Shown here one piece after another: positions 3,263 to 12,048 of a stretch of 64,000 nucleotides of DNA. The position numbers and the translations under genes are program-made. The notes beneath the pieces were generated by a model. That model had not been told where the DNA came from. It saw only the letters and a list, made by a program, of their open reading frames with translations, and ran no database searches. Positions within the stretch are counted from its first letter, which is position 1; each line of letters starts with the position of its first letter. Source of the stretch: a virus; IMG/VR virus record IMGVR_UViG_3300036832_000974, positions 1 to 64,000 of that record. One strand, written 5' to 3'.

Positions 3263-3727
3263 TCACCAACCTGCTTGACCAAGCCGGACAACGAGACGGC
3301 CGACGCGAACCGTTTCCTCCCCCTTCTGAATCAGGTACTCACCGGCTTCGACGCACTCATCGTGCGAAATCTCGTCAGGCAACAAGTCGACAAATTCGTT
3401 GCGAGATGGAACGAAGACCCTCGTGCGATCGATGTCCTTGATTATTTCGCGCTTGTCTTCAGGCCAAAGCGCCAATTGATCGGGACCGGGACGATCCTCG
3501 TAGACACCCTCTTCGATGGCCTTGAGATATTTCCTGATCTCCACATCGAGACCACCGGACAAGAGCCTGCGTTTTATTTCAATGTCGTTATCGATTCTTC
3601 GATAGAAACGACCTCGCAACATGGCGTGCCTGACGTGAGGCGCGGAATTGGGATGATCACTGGCTTTTCTGGCTTCGGTGATCATCGCATGCAGTGCATT
3701 AAGCAGCCGAGTCTTTGGTGTTGCCAT
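3263..3727 (-). CDS. Hypothetical protein
   Basis: ATG at 3727 after GGAGA; overlaps end of upstream gene. Confidence 0.65.
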   Translation of the reverse strand: MATPKTRLLNALHAMITEARKASDHPNSAPHVRHAMLRGRFYRRIDNDIEIKRRLLSGGLDVEIRKYLKAIEEGVYEDRPGPDQLALWPEDKREIIKDIDRTRVFVPSRNEFVDLLPDEISHDECVEAGEYLIQKGEETVRVGRLVVRLGQAGW

Positions 3728-4355
3728 TTGATCTCTCCAAACAGGACTGCCACGATTTGAGATTCCTGATCGCATTCGCACATTCTTCGATCAGCTGCTC
3801 AGCTGGATAAGGGCCGCGGGTTGCCAGCACTTCGAGACCGCAAGCTGGCAATGCAGCAAGATGCGCCACTGCATGAGCCCAATCGAGATACTCGTTGCGA
3901 TGTGGTTCCGGTTCGACCTTGCGTTTGCGCGTGCCTTCGTCAGCAAGCTCTTTGACACTCGCTGGCCGCGGCCGCTCGACCATGGACTCGAATGTGTCTT
4001 CCGGAACGCTAGCAACGCGCAACATCGTCCTGGCTTGCGCTGGCGTCAGATCAGCGGAAGCGGCCATTTCGCTGCGAGAACTGAATTGCACCTTGGTGCC
4101 TTTCAGCTCTTTCGGACTTGTACCCCGCTTATTTGGATTCGCTTTCTTCACCTGCGCCAGCAGCTCGCCACCGCGCCGGATCGCGCGATCGAGAATGCGC
4201 TGCGCCATGTGGATCATTTCCTGATCCTTCATCTGCCGCCCATAGCTCGCCAGCGCCGAGGCTTGGCTTTTCCATTTCACACACTCGTCGACGCGCACGC
4301 ATTGCGCCAATGCGCGCTTGGCGCTCACGTAATTTGTCGGAAGCTTTGCTTTCAT
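3699..4355 (-). CDS. Putative DNA-binding protein sharing its N-terminal domain with the MT-A70 gene
   Basis: KLPTNYVSAKRALAQCVRVDE...RAIRRGGELL aligns with KLPARYSAARKAMANLVRVDE...RATRRIGELM; HTH-like RSEMAASADLTPAQARTMLRVA. Confidence 0.7.
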   Translation of the reverse strand: MKAKLPTNYVSAKRALAQCVRVDECVKWKSQASALASYGRQMKDQEMIHMAQRILDRAIRRGGELLAQVKKANPNKRGTSPKELKGTKVQFSSRSEMAASADLTPAQARTMLRVASVPEDTFESMVERPRPASVKELADEGTRKRKVEPEPHRNEYLDWAHAVAHLAALPACGLEVLATRGPYPAEQLIEECANAIRNLKSWQSCLERSNGNTKDSAA

Positions 4356-4549
4356 GCGTCCGGCCCCTCGACCCAGTGCACCTTGCCGCATTGCGTGCAG
4401 CGATACTGCAGATCGACGTAGCCGCCGCAGTGCGATTCCCAGTACCGATACATCATCCGCGCCGCGCCGCACTTCTGGCAGATCGCGCCAGCGCTCAACG
4501 TCCAGCCGCCGAACGTGCCTTCGCTGTCTTTCATCTCGCGGGTGTGCAT
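4352..4549 (-). CDS. Zinc-ribbon protein
   Basis: CQKC...CTQC; ATGA coupling to next gene. Confidence 0.65.
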   Translation of the reverse strand: MHTREMKDSEGTFGGWTLSAGAICQKCGAARMMYRYWESHCGGYVDLQYRCTQCGKVHWVEGPDA

Positions 4550-4711
4550 CACGACACCATTGCCAGCTTGATGTGCTTGCCCATTGCTCGCCCCGCATAA
4601 AGAGCCGGGCGCCCCAATCCCGGAGGCGCCCAGCTGTGGCATCTGATTCTCGTGTCGCCCAGCTGGGCGATACTGGATCGTCTCGGGCCATCTCCCTGTG
4701 TGCGAACTGGA

Positions 4712-5511: not shown

Positions 5512-6056
5512 GCGCGCACCCGGATATCGGGAAACCGCGTGCGCCACGCCCCCATCAGCGCACTACGCACCGCAAACGACGATACCGAGATCGGCGACGC
5601 CGCATAGAGCAGCTGCAGCGACCCGGGCGCGTCGATCAGCACCACGCCGCGCCGATCGTCCTGCAGCCATTCCAGCGGCGTGTCGTGAACGCGAAGCGAC
5701 TCGCCAACATGCGGCGCCAGCACGTTCTCTTCGCCGAGCATCGTCACCCGACCAAGCCACAACCCAAGCTGCTTGGTCGACGGCTTCCACGCAGCAAGAT
5801 CCGCCACCACGCGATCCTCGTCGAGGCACACGAAGATCAGCGCGGAATGCGTGCCGGTTGGATCGAACTCAAAGTGCGGGCCGCTGAACAACACAGCTCC
5901 CGCCATCACCTGAAATAGCTTGCGCTCCGAATTAAACTTGAGCAGCTCCGGCGCTACCCCGAGCTTGGTGATCTCGGCTTCGCGCAGCGCGCGGCAATGG
6001 CGCCCATACGCCGCGATGACATCGTTGAGCATGACATGATCGACGACGCTATCCAT
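5508..6056 (-). CDS. Conserved alphaproteobacterial phage protein, possibly primase-associated
   Basis: DLAAW.P....LWLGR...LGEE...LRVHDTPLEWL...RRGVVL; directly downstream of helicase. Confidence 0.6.
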   Translation of the reverse strand: MDSVVDHVMLNDVIAAYGRHCRALREAEITKLGVAPELLKFNSERKLFQVMAGAVLFSGPHFEFDPTGTHSALIFVCLDEDRVVADLAAWKPSTKQLGLWLGRVTMLGEENVLAPHVGESLRVHDTPLEWLQDDRRGVVLIDAPGSLQLLYAASPISVSSFAVRSALMGAWRTRFPDIRVRA

Positions 6057-7716
6057 GGCGCTCGCACTCCTTCTGCCGCGCGTACGCAATGTTGCGGCTC
6101 TTCACGAACGCATAGACCTCGGTGGTGATGAAATCGGACGGGCCAACGTGGTGAAGCAGATTCGGCCACACCCCAAACTTGGCCTTGTAGGTGTGCGCCT
6201 CCCAGCCCCTGCTCTTGTTGTAGTCGATCTGATAGCGCAGCAGCTGCGCATAGAACTCGGCCTTCTCGCGCATCGTGTAGACACGCGGCCCGCCCTTGTT
6301 GCCCATCGTGATCTTGCCGCGCTCGACCTCGACCAGCTCGCCGTCGGACTCAATGATCGGCGACAGCACCTTGAACTCATGGCCGCAGTGCGGGCAGCAC
6401 TGGCACTTCTTCTCGATCAGCATCGCGCACTTGCTGCACGTCTTCGGTAGCGGCTTCTTGTTGTCCTGCCGCTTGCGTTTGCGATCGCCGTCATCAAGCT
6501 CGTCGTACTCGATGTCGGTCACAAACCCGAGCCGCGAGGTCGTGTCCGAGTGGTCGAGGATGATCGCGTACGGCTTGCCAGCTGCAGTGCGTAGCGCGCG
6601 ACCAATGATCTGCTTGTAAAGCATCTCCGATCGCGTCGGTCGCGCCAGGATCAAACACCGCACATCCCAATCGGTGCCGGTCGTCAACGTACCGACATTG
6701 CACACCACCTCGATCTCGCCGGAATGAAACTTCTCACGGATCTCACGCCGCCCTTCCAACCACTCGATCGAGCCGCCCCTCGCTTTCACCTTCTCGGCGT
6801 CCTTGGTTAACATGCCGGTGCTGGCATCCTGATAGGCCGCTCGAACGCCAGCCTCCCTGAAACGAGCTGCCAACGTCTGTGCATGCGCACAGTCGACACC
6901 AAACACCAGCGTTTTGCCCTTGCCCCAGCGCTTCTTGTAGGTGTCGATGATGTCGGCGGTCAGCGTGCCTTGCTGCATCCGTTTCGCCGTCTCGCCCTCG
7001 TCGAAATCACCACGCACGATCTTGACGCCTGTCATGTCGGGATGCCCGGTTGCAAACGTGCGGAACGGGCACAGAATGCCAGCGTCGATCATCTCCTGCG
7101 TCGTGCCAGTGCGAATCAACGTCTCGAACACACGGAACGGCTGAAACGCAACGTCGTCGTGCTTGCGCTTCCAATCGTCAAGAAAATCTTGCGGATACTC
7201 CTCAAGCGGACCGCCGAGACCCTTGGTGTATGGCGTCGCCGACAAGCCAATGAACAACCGACCGCGATCGACCACCGCGTAGTTCTCGTCGCGCTTCGGA
7301 CCGTACAGCTTGAGCAAATGCCGATGCGCCTTGTGCAGCACATGGCATTCGTCGATCACGAACACGTCGGCATCGGGAAATGTTTGGCGCTTCGCCGCGG
7401 TCTGAATCGACACGATCTGCACCGGCTTCGACCAATCGGTGAGCTGGTGATTTTGCTGAACCACTCCGATGTCGGTGAAGCCCTCGTTCGCAAACGCCTC
7501 CACGGTCTGGTCGATCAGCGACAGGTTCGACACCACGAACGCGACCCGCTTCCACACCCCCTTCGATAGCGCCGCATCGAAAATCCCGGCAGCCAAGTGC
7601 GTCTTGCCGCTGCCGGTCGGGCCCGAAATCACCATGCGGCGAATGCCCGAGCGGTACGACTCCCGCATCGCGTCCAAGGCGATCGCGTTGTGGCTCCAGA
7701 GGGTCCGCGTTAGCAT
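6049..7716 (-). CDS. SF2 DExH helicase (RadD/UvsW-like) with C-terminal zinc finger
   Basis: GPTGSGKT, DECH, LSATP, TGTDW, QIIGRALR, CSKC/CPHC. Confidence 0.93.
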   Translation of the reverse strand: MLTRTLWSHNAIALDAMRESYRSGIRRMVISGPTGSGKTHLAAGIFDAALSKGVWKRVAFVVSNLSLIDQTVEAFANEGFTDIGVVQQNHQLTDWSKPVQIVSIQTAAKRQTFPDADVFVIDECHVLHKAHRHLLKLYGPKRDENYAVVDRGRLFIGLSATPYTKGLGGPLEEYPQDFLDDWKRKHDDVAFQPFRVFETLIRTGTTQEMIDAGILCPFRTFATGHPDMTGVKIVRGDFDEGETAKRMQQGTLTADIIDTYKKRWGKGKTLVFGVDCAHAQTLAARFREAGVRAAYQDASTGMLTKDAEKVKARGGSIEWLEGRREIREKFHSGEIEVVCNVGTLTTGTDWDVRCLILARPTRSEMLYKQIIGRALRTAAGKPYAIILDHSDTTSRLGFVTDIEYDELDDGDRKRKRQDNKKPLPKTCSKCAMLIEKKCQCCPHCGHEFKVLSPIIESDGELVEVERGKITMGNKGGPRVYTMREKAEFYAQLLRYQIDYNKSRGWEAHTYKAKFGVWPNLLHHVGPSDFITTEVYAFVKSRNIAYARQKECERHG

Positions 7717-7943
7717 GACGCCCACCCCCGGTTCGTTCTGCTTCGACGCTGGTGCGACAACTCGCCGCGGCCGCCCCTGCCTCTTGAACAAGCATCCCTA
7801 TAGGTAATGGAGAACTTACTTACTTTTCTTACTTCTCTTGAAAGCCTCTTAATTTCTAAACATTGCACCTCTGAGAACACGTAACTGCGCGCACGCGCCC
7901 GCACGCGCGAATCCTCCTTTACTCCATGACAATGCAATGGCAT
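7710..7943 (-). CDS. Short ORF resembling a replication-initiator linker fragment; AT-rich, possible origin
   Basis: GGGAGG RBS, RVRARAR motif, AT-rich 7800-7865 with CTTA repeats. Confidence 0.35.
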   Translation of the reverse strand: MPLHCHGVKEDSRVRARARSYVFSEVQCLEIKRLSREVRKVSKFSITYRDACSRGRGGRGELSHQRRSRTNRGWASC

Positions 7944-8474: not shown

Positions 8475-9089
8475 CTATACGCACACCCCGACTTGCGTAA
8501 TACGTCGCAGCATCGCCCCGGGGCGCAGCTTGGCGGACTGGTAAGCCCATAGAGCCGCCGCATCCCCGGCATTGTGATCGGGAACGTTCCAGCCGAGCTG
8601 CCGACAGCGCCGCATCACCGCTTCCTTGGCGATGGCAGACGGCAGTCGCTTGTGGCCAATGAAGAGGTTGCGAATGTCGCGAACGTCGTGGATGCGGTGG
8701 TCGCGAATGCCGCACTGCTCGGCGGTACCGAGAATGACTGCGGCGAGGCCAAACAGCAGCCACCCTTCCTGCTGCGACTTGAATGCCTTCACCGAGATCG
8801 GCGCTTCAACGGCCACGAGATCGGGTGCGTGATCAGAACGGAAGATCTCGATCGACCAGCGCAACGCGGCGGCGAAGCGTGCCCCGTTGCTGGCGCCATC
8901 CTTGCCGAACTTGATCGAGCCGAACTCGGGGGCGTCGGCTCCGAGCGGACCGCGGGCCCATCCGGTACGGGTCGCTATGTCGAGCGCGATTATATCGATC
9001 AGCTTGACAACCCCAACTTTGCAACCACTTATTGCATAGACGCCCCGGCCCGCCTCTCCTAAAGGCGGACCGGGACTTGACAACAGCAA
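8475..9089 (-). CDS. RuvC-like Holliday junction resolvase (start uncertain)
   Basis: IIALDIATRTGWA, LVAVEAP, HNAGDAAALW acidic catalytic motifs. Confidence 0.82.
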   Translation of the reverse strand: MLLSSPGPPLGEAGRGVYAISGCKVGVVKLIDIIALDIATRTGWARGPLGADAPEFGSIKFGKDGASNGARFAAALRWSIEIFRSDHAPDLVAVEAPISVKAFKSQQEGWLLFGLAAVILGTAEQCGIRDHRIHDVRDIRNLFIGHKRLPSAIAKEAVMRRCRQLGWNVPDHNAGDAAALWAYQSAKLRPGAMLRRITQVGVCV

Positions 9090-9106
9090 CCGCTAGGACG
9101 GCCGCT

Positions 9107-9799
9107 ATGCCCGACAAGACTTCTACCACAACAGCCAAGGTTGTCTCCTTGCCGGTTCGGCTTGTGTGCTCAGCTTGTGGAGCAGACGGCCAAGGATCGT
9201 GCCAATGCGGAGCGCCCTACATTCCAAAGTCCCAGCGGGCCGCCGAGGCCATCGCCGCCAACCCGGAAAAGTCTGACCGCGCCATCGCGGCAGAGATCGG
9301 GGTGAGCCATGAAGCTGTCAGTAAGGTTCGACGTTCAACTGTCAACTTGTTGACAGTTGATGCCAAGCGCACCGGCCGCGATGGCAAGACGCGCAAGGTG
9401 CCAGAACGTGCACAGTCGCAGCGCAAGGCTGGCCCCAAGCCCGGCCAGAAACAACACCAAGCTTCGGTGAACTCACGTCCCGAGGATTGGGAGCGGTTCA
9501 AGGCCGTCGCAGCAAAGGAAGGCATATCGGCTGCCGACAAGCTAGGCCGCTACGTCGAGAGCGTTGCAAACGATCACACAGAAAAAACGGTCAGCATTCA
9601 CGAGCTGATCGAAAAGCTCGTCCCACTGGCAGAGCAAATCCGCGACCAAGGAAAACGACACGCCGCACTTGTCTCACAAGGTGCGCTGGTGATCGTCGCT
9701 TCCGAAATTCGCAGATTGCTGGACAAGTGGGCCGAAGGCGACGCGTCCATTCGTCGGGTTAATGGTCACGTCGTCCCCCCGAAGCACCCGGCAAAATGA
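9107..9799 (+). CDS. Zinc-finger plus HTH DNA-binding protein
   Basis: CSAC...CQCG, NPEKSDRAIAAEIGVSHEAVSKVR HTH, KRTGRDGK motif. Confidence 0.8.
   Translation: MPDKTSTTTAKVVSLPVRLVCSACGADGQGSCQCGAPYIPKSQRAAEAIAANPEKSDRAIAAEIGVSHEAVSKVRRSTVNLLTVDAKRTGRDGKTRKVPERAQSQRKAGPKPGQKQHQASVNSRPEDWERFKAVAAKEGISAADKLGRYVESVANDHTEKTVSIHELIEKLVPLAEQIRDQGKRHAALVSQGALVIVASEIRRLLDKWAEGDASIRRVNGHVVPPKHPAK
9335..9360. repeat. Perfect 12-bp inverted repeat with 2-nt spacer inside the HTH gene
   Basis: TCAACTGTCAAC-TT-GTTGACAGTTGA. Confidence 0.92.
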
Positions 9800-9812
9800 A
9801 AGGACGGTTCCC

Positions 9813-10688
9813 ATGGGAGCCCATTTCAAACTGATCAACAGCGAAACTGTGGACGTCACTCCACAGCTCGCTGCTGATTTCGCAAGCATGGCCGCTTCGC
9901 AAACAGAGCGAGACCTCTCGTCGAAGCGGCTTAACTACCTGAAGGATGCTATCCTCGGCGGCACTGCCATCGCCTTCACGTGGGCGAAGGCAAAGATCGC
10001 CGAGACTGGCGAGACGTACCGAGTCAACGGTCACCATAGTTCGACTATGCTGTCACGTCTTAACGGCGAAATGCCGTCTGGACTAAAGGCACATATCGAC
10101 ACTTACGAGGTGCCTGACAAGGAGTCTCTCGGTCGGCTGTTTCAGCAGATCGATAGTCGCCAGAGCGCCCGCACAATAGCGGACATCTCGGGAGCTTGGC
10201 AAGGACTTCAGGATGATCTTGTGGCGGTGCCAAAAGACGCCGCCCGCAAGGCAATCGAGGGCCATATCTGGTTTCAGAAAAACAAGGTCGGCAACGAGGT
10301 CCCTACCGGGGACAGTCGCTTTTCCTTGTTCTCTGACCAAACCCTGCATCCGTTTATCAAGATGGCGGGCCGGGTGCTGTCCCTCAAGACCCCGGAGTTC
10401 ACCACTCCGGTCGTTGCAGCCATGTTTGGAGCTTTCGAACGTAACCCAGAGGAAGCCGAAAAGTTTTTCGGCGATGTCGCAAAGCAGGGTGGCGGCAACG
10501 ATGCGCATCACCCGGCCAGCGTTCTCGATGCGTGGCTGATCGATGCGCGTGAACAGCGGGAGGATAAGCCAAAAGAGCAAGAGGTCTACTACGCTGCCGC
10601 TTTGGCGTGGAATGCCTTCCGCAACCACAGAGACCTCGACCGCATCCCGAAGTACAACAAGAAAAAGGGCGCACCTGAACTCGACTGA
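9813..10688 (+). CDS. ParB/DGQHR-like N-terminal domain protein
   Basis: VTPQLA...ERDLS.KRL...YRVNGHHS resembles the ParB/Srx (D/N)GxHR motif, with the Arg replaced. Confidence 0.6.
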   Translation: MGAHFKLINSETVDVTPQLAADFASMAASQTERDLSSKRLNYLKDAILGGTAIAFTWAKAKIAETGETYRVNGHHSSTMLSRLNGEMPSGLKAHIDTYEVPDKESLGRLFQQIDSRQSARTIADISGAWQGLQDDLVAVPKDAARKAIEGHIWFQKNKVGNEVPTGDSRFSLFSDQTLHPFIKMAGRVLSLKTPEFTTPVVAAMFGAFERNPEEAEKFFGDVAKQGGGNDAHHPASVLDAWLIDAREQREDKPKEQEVYYAAALAWNAFRNHRDLDRIPKYNKKKGAPELD

Positions 10689-10693
10689 CCTTC

Positions 10694-10915
10694 TCACAAA
10701 TTGAGAAACATCTGCAGATCGTTATCATCCGCCGCCGGTGCCTGTGGTGCCGGCGGCGGTGGCTTTGGTTGCGCCCATGGGGATACCTGCTCGGCCGTGC
10801 GCAAAACCTGCAGGCACTTCCCCATCTCGTCCAGCTCAATACTGCCAGGGGGCAACCAACCAACTTTGGTCAATTGCCCCGGCAATACCAACCCGATCTT
10901 TGGTGTCTTGGTCAT
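10694..10915 (-). CDS. Hypothetical protein
   Basis: ATGA-coupled to the methyltransferase; Pro-rich tail. Confidence 0.55.
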   Translation of the reverse strand: MTKTPKIGLVLPGQLTKVGWLPPGSIELDEMGKCLQVLRTAEQVSPWAQPKPPPPAPQAPAADDNDLQMFLNL

Positions 10916-12048
10916 TCAGCGGCCACCGTATGGTGCTCGACCGGCGCGGGCGCTGGCGGCGGCACTGGCGTTGCCTCAACCGGCGGCGCCGCTGGCGCAG
11001 GCTGGGCCTCGTTACCGTGCGCGTCCCACCCGGGTCGTGCCGGGCCGCGGCGGTTCAGCTCGATCTTTGGCAAATCGGGATAGGACTTCTCGATCATCTC
11101 GATGAACTCGACCGGCTTCTCGCTGTGGGCACCGCGATCGGCGACAATCACCGATGATGGCGCGATCTGAGTGGGCATCGCAGGCTTGCCCTTGGTGCCG
11201 ATCAGCAGCAGCTCGTGCTGATTGCGGGCCCAGTAGCCGGTGCCGATCCGCGTCTTCACCCACACCATGCTGCTGACGTATTCGAACTCCCAAGCGGCCA
11301 TGACGTCGAGCGCATCGTGCAGCATCGGTACCGTTGCCCACAGGTACAGCACGCAATCATCGGCTGCGATCTTCGCCACCGGGATCGCCCGGATCTCTGC
11401 GGTCGTCTGGACGAGATAGTGATTGGCTGCAGCGCGGTCCTGGCCGGTCTCCTCGCCCCACGTCTCGAACTGCCAACCCGGGTCGGCGAGGATCACGCCG
11501 TACTTCTTGTCGGGCAGCGCCGCAATCCGCTTCGCCAGATCTTGCTGCTTCTTGATGCGCGCTGCGGTCTTTGCAGCGTTGCGTTCAGCCTTGGCTTCCT
11601 TGAGGAAGGCCTTGTCACCATCAACCGATGCTGTCGCAAGCCTGATGGCCTCGCTGACCTTCTTCTCGAATTCCTTTTCCGGAATCACCGACATCTTACG
11701 CGCAGCTTTTGCGAGATCCTTGTCGATTTTTCTATCGATCAATTTGGGGGCGGTCGCCCCTTTTTTCGGTCGCCCCTTTTTGGCCCGTTCGTTGGCCTTC
11801 TTCATTTCCTCCATCAACTCACCGATACGGCGGGTCGCTCGCATCTTTACTTCAGTCGCCTCAGCAAGGAGTTCACGATCCTTTGCCTGAAACGAGTACA
11901 CTTCCATCGCGAGTGCCTTGTCACGAATGTTCTTCACCTCATCAACTCGAACTAGGTTCGCCATCGCCTTACGGGCCGCCGAGTATCTCGCCGGTAGCTT
12001 TATTGTTGGCTTCATCCCAGCCTTGTCATACGCAGTCAGTTGTCTCAT
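10912..12048 (-). CDS. MT-A70 family adenine methyltransferase with N-terminal DNA-binding extension
   Basis: YGVILADPGW, HY, LYLWAT, WVK, GTGYWARNQHELLLIG, HSEKP, IEL. Confidence 0.92.
   Translation of the reverse strand: MRQLTAYDKAGMKPTIKLPARYSAARKAMANLVRVDEVKNIRDKALAMEVYSFQAKDRELLAEATEVKMRATRRIGELMEEMKKANERAKKGRPKKGATAPKLIDRKIDKDLAKAARKMSVIPEKEFEKKVSEAIRLATASVDGDKAFLKEAKAERNAAKTAARIKKQQDLAKRIAALPDKKYGVILADPGWQFETWGEETGQDRAAANHYLVQTTAEIRAIPVAKIAADDCVLYLWATVPMLHDALDVMAAWEFEYVSSMVWVKTRIGTGYWARNQHELLLIGTKGKPAMPTQIAPSSVIVADRGAHSEKPVEFIEMIEKSYPDLPKIELNRRGPARPGWDAHGNEAQPAPAAPPVEATPVPPPAPAPVEHHTVAAE

Follow-up and report, generated by a model that had tools for sequence, protein, structure and literature searches.

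A DNA palindrome that is conserved in frame within the linker codons of a phage gene, and that changes by compensation between relatives, is essentially certain to be real, and comparison of the homologues suggests that it is a selected element of double-stranded DNA, likely the dyad-symmetric binding site of the very protein whose linker it encodes. The gene in question (the Zn-HTH gene) codes for a protein with a zinc ribbon and a predicted helix–turn–helix (HTH) and lies in the window analyzed here, a stretch of 64,000 nucleotides from IMG/VR record IMGVR_UViG_3300036832_000974. This record is the complete genome of an uncultured phage, 88,795 bp long and with direct terminal repeats, and the window covers its first 64 kb. 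The elements involved are as follows:

9107–9799, plus strand: Zn-HTH gene, 230 amino acids (aa), with zinc ribbon, HTH, palindrome-encoded linker, the motif RTGRDGKTRKVP, a ParG-like segment and a helical C-terminus.
9305–9340, plus strand: predicted recognition helix, residues 67–78, SHEAVSKVRRST; the AlphaFold2 (AF2) model has a helix at 68–78.
9335–9360, no strand: perfect 12-2-12 palindrome, TCAACTGTCAAC-TT-GTTGACAGTTGA, encoding S77–D85 (STVNLLTVD).
9336–9341, no strand: left outer box CAACTG, conserved in the family, with a fixed Thr codon.
9342–9353, no strand: inner core and center, TCAAC-TT-GTTGA, varying between homologues with compensatory changes.
9354–9359, no strand: right outer box CAGTTG, conserved in the family, with a nearly fixed Val codon.
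9368–9403, plus strand: conserved RxGxDGKxRKxP motif, R88–P99, whose variants covary with the outer-box variant.

The palindrome has perfect 12-nt arms around a 2-nt spacer, and its axis falls between codon positions 1 and 2 of Leu81. It starts 228 nt inside gene 9107–9799, is in frame with that gene and begins at the C-terminal end of the predicted recognition helix, which bears out the first-pass annotation of a perfect in-frame palindrome following the recognition helix of a Zn-HTH gene. Among the perfect inverted repeats of the window it is the longest, and 12/12 palindromes with a spacer of 0–4 nt occur once, against 0.15 expected from composition-preserving shuffles. Taken alone, this single instance is mildly to moderately improbable and not decisive; the case for the palindrome is made because homologues carry it. 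The 12-mer half-site is present in a single copy in the complete 88,795-bp record, and no further CAACTG-N10–16-CAGTTG arrangement was found in the 88.8-kb genome besides the one at 9335–9360. The core of this particular phage duplicates the GTTGA of the outer box, and its half-site amounts to two TCAAC units spaced 7 bp apart.

Homologue DNA was recovered by alignment-based scans, in which 117 loci fetched from viral, metagenome and genome collections yielded 78 distinct DNAs covering the region from the HTH to the GxDGK motif. A palindrome of 20–28 bp lies between the recognition helix and the RxGxDGKxRKxP motif in 75 of these 78. Sixty-six of the 78 have at least 9 of 13 pairs in the same codons, with the axis falling after the first base of the center codon; nine keep the same boxes with an odd spacer and in another phase; and three are without a convincing palindrome. 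The shared layout is CAACTG, a variable core of ~5 bases, two center bases, the complementary core and CAGTTG, giving a family consensus of nCAACTG-nnnCA-NN-TGnnn-CAGTTGn.

Pairing statistics were computed on 65 distinct sequences, with distances numbered outward from the symmetry axis. At pairs 3–6 from the axis, 94–98% of the pairs are Watson–Crick, compared with 27–47% predicted from the column composition, and these positions comprise 39 distinct cores. At the four variable pairs, both sides have changed in 24–41 of the 65 sequences and one side alone has changed in none. Over the whole site, 92.3% of cells form pairs, against 67.6% in shuffles (0/500) and 19–37% with the partner slid, and the covariation score is 0.596 against 0.142. 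All of these counts carry the qualification that the axis was taken from the best palindrome in each linker and part of the pairing therefore arises by construction. The position of the axis is constant throughout, at codon 21 ± 2 after the SDR anchor. Whether symmetry is kept while the core varies, a question posed in the first-pass annotation, can thus be answered in the affirmative.

Several features of the coding sequence indicate that the constraint acts on the nucleotides and not on the peptide. The Thr of the left box is encoded by ACT in 49 of 49 homologues, compared with 16% in the rest of the same open reading frames, and the Val of the right box by GTT in 49 of 50, compared with 19%. 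Third codon positions are 74% A+T in the palindrome and 34% A+T elsewhere. In several homologues the CAACTG or CAGTTG box is translated in another frame, as Gln-Leu, and the linkers contain residue pairs that are explicable only as reverse-complement codons (T-V, G-P, A-A, S-D/E, N-L/F and Q-C). Independent evidence comes from 100 representatives of 50%-identity clusters, of which 69 have at least three reverse-complement-compatible pairs around one center residue, a level that 0.7% of shuffled linkers reach.

The variable core is coupled to the recognition helix. Sequences that are further apart in helix 3 also tend to be further apart in the core (r = 0.30, partial Mantel p ≤ 0.0005), a relation seen for none of the other 9-aa blocks of the domain, where r lies between −0.14 and 0.007. 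For core pairs 3–6, mutual information reaches z values of 6–13 at helix positions 1, 2, 3, 6 and 7, which constitute the exposed face, whereas the remaining columns stay at z ≤ 3.9 and equally close variable columns downstream of the palindrome at z ≤ 3.3. What these downstream columns and the residue ahead of DGK vary with is the type of outer box (CAGTTG, CACCTG or the inverted box), with z values of 5–16 for a coupling measured at pairs 9–10 from the axis. In pairwise comparisons of sequences whose remaining domain is <65% identical, which are not phylogenetically independent, pairs with the same helix (at least 4/5 identical residues) share the core in 20 of 22 cases and pairs with different helices in 34 of 1273. 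Recurrent pairings of helix and core are HQTV-GGACC, SNTV-GGCGC, KDTV-GCGCC, [FY]ETV-GTGTC, EATV-GACGC, HTTV-TTGCC, DKTV-TCCGC and HKTV-TCCCC. The proposal that the core covaries with recognition-helix residues has therefore given a positive and specific result by all three approaches (Mantel, mutual information and pairwise).

These observations bear on what else the palindrome could be. That it arose by chance, or as a by-product of peptide constraints, might be argued from the window alone, where 0.15 such palindromes are expected and a lone instance is not decisive, but this explanation is refuted by the conservation in 75 of 78 homologues, by the fixed rare codons, by the use of the boxes in two frames and by reverse-complement residue pairs such as G-P, Q-C and N-F, and we give it practically no weight. 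An RNA hairpin in the messenger RNA (mRNA), acting in ribosome pausing, RNase III processing or attenuation, would form with an 11-bp stem, and the site does lie at a protein domain boundary. G-U pairs, however, are not tolerated: mismatches are equally rare in both forms (10 G:T versus 11 A:C), and none of the 65 sequences has a one-sided G-U-type intermediate at any of the four variable pairs. In addition, pairing adjoining the 2-nt center is enriched (0.68 versus 0.48), so that complementarity runs into the would-be loop. Neither a terminator-like T-run after the palindrome nor an Rfam match covering the site was found. The equality of G:T and A:C mismatches, the lack of G-U intermediates and the pairing up to the center point to duplex DNA with a strict dyad, or to a DNA hairpin, rather than to mRNA structure, and a role for the site as RNA seems very unlikely.

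A DNA hairpin or cruciform is also unlikely in our estimation, but it deserves more consideration. In this case the site would be a signal for replication, recombination or processing, another factor would read its CAACTG/CAGTTG base and the inner stem would drift by compensation. Fixed outer arms with a varying, complementary inner stem are indeed a classic signature of structure, the single-stranded DNA fold comes to −11.5 kcal/mol (z = −3.0), and the gene resides in a replication/recombination module (SSB, helicase, RuvC-like), with a helicase homologue upstream in four loci. Such a signal nevertheless leaves unexplained why, of all the variable parts of the domain, the exposed residues of the recognition helix alone covary with the core, and pairing that is enriched right up to the 2-nt center would be needless in a hairpin loop. 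There is also no AT-rich unwinding region nearby, and two adjacent paralogues on a related phage contig (L004, 1850–2950), which have the helices SHGTVSRAR and SDRTINRAR and differing palindromes of their own, would be odd for an origin. Somewhat less probable again is a duplex site for a different reader, be it the ParB/sulfiredoxin (Srx)-fold protein encoded next door, the ribbon–helix–helix segment of the Zn-HTH protein or a factor from the host. The 7-bp spacing of the two TCAAC units recalls the heptad arrays read by ribbon–helix–helix proteins, the Zn-HTH protein contains a ParG-like segment and a ParB/Srx-like gene follows. The palindrome, however, belongs to the whole family of N-terminal modules, with its many unrelated C-termini and neighbors, whereas the ribbon–helix–helix segment and the ParB-like neighbor are confined to a small subfamily (gene neighborhoods of homologues being judged on flanks of 1.5–2 kb), and the covariation points to the HTH helix.

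Other functions were considered for the site as well. An origin of replication is unlikely, as there are no iterons and no AT-rich region (the GC content is 0.52–0.73 within 300 bp on either side) and the L004 contig has two adjacent site-bearing genes. A domain-shuffling recombination site was rejected because family members remain homologous beyond the palindrome for ~12 codons, up to and including the RKxP motif.

If the palindrome is instead bound by the protein that it helps to encode, two N-terminal Zn-ribbon/HTH modules would occupy the two half-sites. The recognition helix would read the variable inner core, 3–6 bp from the axis, and the basic RxGxDGKxRKxP tail would read the conserved outer CAACTG box, with the 8–9 codons that join helix and tail constituting the site itself. 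Because the site encodes the linker between these two reading elements, reader and site would be inseparable by recombination and would diversify together. The outcome would be a portable, self-addressed cassette of reader plus site that has been fused to many different C-terminal domains. Given one site in the genome and no extra half-sites above the control rate near homologues, the cassette probably acts in cis at its own locus. One option is negative feedback, where the bound protein would be a roadblock to transcription through the gene, a mode of action that would be in keeping with the reuse of the module on many genes. Alternatively, the site may be where the ParB/Srx-fold product of the neighboring gene is loaded, in the manner of parS.

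A number of points weigh against binding of the protein to its own codons. Extra half-sites near the homologue genes do not exceed the cross-control rate and the excess of 8-mers upstream across homologues is faint (4 versus 0.86 expected), so that the classical layout of an operator at a promoter is not seen. A 12-bp half-site is long for one HTH, and a second reading element must therefore be assumed. The tests of helix against core lack phylogenetic independence, and the mapping between helix and core is not one-to-one; the GGAC core, for example, occurs with HQTV, KNTV and TMTV helices. Since the palindrome encodes the linker peptide, helix and core could covary in part because helix and linker touch one another inside the protein, and co-inheritance of adjacent codons could be a further partial source. 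The specificity of the signal for the exposed face of the helix favors direct reading by the helix.

The N-terminal module of about 100 aa represents a large family without a Pfam, NCBIfam or PHROG name. Profile searches place 7,090 clusters at 50% identity in this family at E ≤ 1e-3, and 1,811 at E ≤ 1e-10, with the module fused to many unrelated C-termini that include Dam-type methyltransferases (PF05869). A tblastn search with the N-terminal 102 aa against 50,697 GenBank phage records gave no match, a single-sequence viral scan found no homologue and literature searches found no description of the family or of the motif. We propose, tentatively and with slightly less than even confidence, that this uncharacterized phage and prophage family of 7,090 clusters writes its own operator into its linker codons, that each lineage maintains a private protein–site pair and that the pairings amount to a natural recognition code and to a library of orthogonal regulators and operators, in a design that may recur in the methyltransferase/ParB-like N-terminal family.

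Should the protein bind its own codons, the family would be a clear example from nature of a DNA-binding domain that is passed on with its site as one inseparable unit, and the ability of phages to move such modules to new effector domains without loss of address would have an explanation. It would also provide dozens of co-evolved helix/site pairs from which rules of HTH recognition could be read and tested, and a source of candidate orthogonal regulator/operator parts. Strong selection at the nucleotide level, with rare codons fixed at 98–100%, can hide in ordinary-looking coding sequence, a point of relevance to annotation and to codon-usage models.

Several known systems resemble the Zn-HTH gene in having a self-encoded site and covarying specificity; among the differences, the site here encodes the linker between what would be two reading elements. 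The phage lambda O protein has its binding sites inside its own gene, in the linker-coding stretch that follows the N-terminal DNA-binding domain (ori-lambda), and from one related phage to the next the sequence of the sites changes along with the specificity of the domain. The likeness extends to both of these properties. Lambda, however, has at least four iterons and an AT-rich region and uses them as an origin, whereas here there is one palindrome with no AT-rich region and no repeats, and the protein belongs to a Zn-ribbon plus HTH fold family with no evidence of an initiator function.

For ParB/Spo0J, the parS site can likewise lie inside the protein's own gene, and the Zn-HTH gene is comparable in that a palindromic site lies in the coding sequence of an HTH protein, with a ParB/Srx-fold protein encoded next door. 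A parS-type palindrome has 16 bp and usually occurs in several copies; in contrast to that system, the site sequence (CAACTG...CAGTTG, in single copy in the 88.8-kb genome) is unrelated to parS and the ParB-like neighbor is confined to a small subfamily. The N-terminal domain of ParB, which is of the ParB/Srx type and binds CTP, was not found in the 230-aa protein with Pfam or NCBIfam, and no ParA-type ATPase is present among the genes scanned within about 1–16 kb, the genome not having been searched for one. Methyltransferases and controller proteins of restriction–modification systems autoregulate by means of an N-terminal HTH and a palindromic operator. The resemblance here is that of an HTH module fused to, or located beside, a DNA-modification enzyme, as in the family members fused to Dam-type methyltransferases, with a dyad site that the module would recognize in cis. 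The operators of those systems are located in the promoter region, but the site described here belongs to the module itself, 228 nt into the coding sequence.

Further features of the Zn-HTH protein and of its neighbor are the following:

9167–9208, plus strand: zinc-ribbon cysteines C21, C24, C32 and C34, (nearly) invariant in alignments A1 and A3.
9431–9559, plus strand: ribbon–helix–helix-like segment, residues 109–151; Pfam ParG, E = 4.8e-4, and RHH_10, E = 0.007.
9810–10688, plus strand: downstream partner gene, 291 aa; AF2 pLDDT 92.5, with a weak ParB/sulfiredoxin/DndB-like N-terminal fold.

The zinc ribbon of the 230-aa protein has the pattern CxxC-x7-CxC, and its HTH segment reads KSDRAIAAEIGVSHEAVSKVR. 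Three helices are present in the AF2 model (pLDDT 67), at residues 41–51, 57–64 and 68–78, and the linker is modeled as coil. Foldseek matches to the N-domain are weak and consist of winged-HTH rows such as FapR, DeoR and MarR; a Pfam match of HTH_AsnC type has E = 0.048, and a profile search of PDB sequences found no relative of the N-domain. A dimer prediction for the N-terminal module (two copies, alignment A3) scored 0.21, the mark being 0.42, a score that weighs neither for nor against a dimer. The ParG match is just under the Pfam cut-off (20.7 versus 21.4 bits). With a ParG-like segment beside the HTH, the protein would carry two distinct DNA-binding modules.

Genes 9107–9799 and 9810–10688 form a plus-strand pair within a minus-strand replication/modification module whose surrounding genes include SSB, a helicase, a RuvC-like gene and an MT-A70 methyltransferase. 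The first ~120 residues of the 291-aa partner weakly resemble the N-domains of ParB, Noc, sulfiredoxin, DndB, SspE and BrxU (Foldseek/VIA, Z about 5), and the protein contains an RVNGHHSS motif. Partner homologues with 63–75% identity accompany the closest Zn-HTH relatives, indicating co-inheritance with this Zn-HTH subfamily, and a homologue of the ParB/Srx-like gene comes after the tandem pair in L004. We also note that four other phages (L015, L019, L022 and L024; positions 1–900) have a homologue of the helicase (6049–7791) on the strand of their Zn-HTH gene and ~1.2 kb ahead of it, which suggests a recurrent link to the replication module.

The region upstream of the Zn-HTH gene contains two repeats:

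9003–9011, plus strand: first CTTGACAAC repeat, with TTGACA in common with the palindrome arm.
9076–9084, plus strand: second CTTGACAAC repeat, 25 nt before the start codon.

These repeats, inside which lie the upstream TTGACA copies reported earlier at 9004 and 9077, are 73 bp apart, and a GC-rich hairpin (9044–9074) is located between them, immediately ahead of the gene. The window has fewer copies of TTGACA than expected (14 versus 26), and 4 of the 14 fall within 9004–9355. The upstream copies may be promoter elements (−35 box) or auxiliary half-sites; a sigma-70 promoter scan of 8700–9900 found nothing. A sub-threshold Rfam row for PtaRNA1 (E = 0.12) lies over 9038–9083 on the minus strand.

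Two other genes of the window contain palindromes with a 2-nt spacer:

4077–4110, no strand: 13/16 palindrome in the linker of gene 3699–4355 (minus strand), possibly analogous.
11741–11766, no strand: GGGGCG-GT-CGCCCC, a GC-rich 6+6 palindrome in the linker of the MT-A70 gene, at chance level.

The first-pass annotation had described these as two paralogous genes with palindromes of the same spacing beside their HTH-like segments. Genes 3699–4355 and 10912–12048 (both minus strand) do have a common N-terminal domain (39% identity over 102 aa; phrog_33995), but they are paralogues of one another and not of the Zn-HTH gene. Both palindromes exist; that at 11741–11766 is unremarkable, however, because 27 palindromes of the 6/6 type with a 2-nt spacer occur in the window versus 22 expected, and the nearest relatives of the MT-A70 gene keep no palindrome-compatible peptide. 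The palindrome at 4077–4110 is moderately unusual (three of the 13/16 type in the window versus 0.45 expected), and no homologue DNA was found for its gene. The suggestion that site and specificity travel as one unit is thus well supported by comparison for the Zn-HTH gene and weak for these two. The long open reading frames 3699–4691 and 10912–12048, both on the minus strand, probably start downstream of their first start codons. The homology of 3699–4691 begins at Met113 (MKAKLP...), which places the start at 4355, and the database protein for the MT-A70 gene has 350 aa and not 378.

Among relatives of these two genes, the self-encoded palindrome design seems to recur in this second, unrelated HTH family, and self-encoded palindromes beside HTHs may be a general phage design. 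Approximately 30 of 44 distinct relatives of the shared N-terminal domain (loci L128–L207) have a palindrome with arms of 10–21 nt located 3–10 codons before the HTH. The best-palindrome score has a mean of 6.65 in the linker and 4.97 in control stretches of the same genes, and scores of at least 8 are found in 14 of 51 linkers compared with 5 of 153 controls. The palindromes of this second family, whose N-terminal domain is found in MT-A70, Dam and ParB-like phage proteins, often have an inner TCGCA...TGCGA flanked by variable outer arms.

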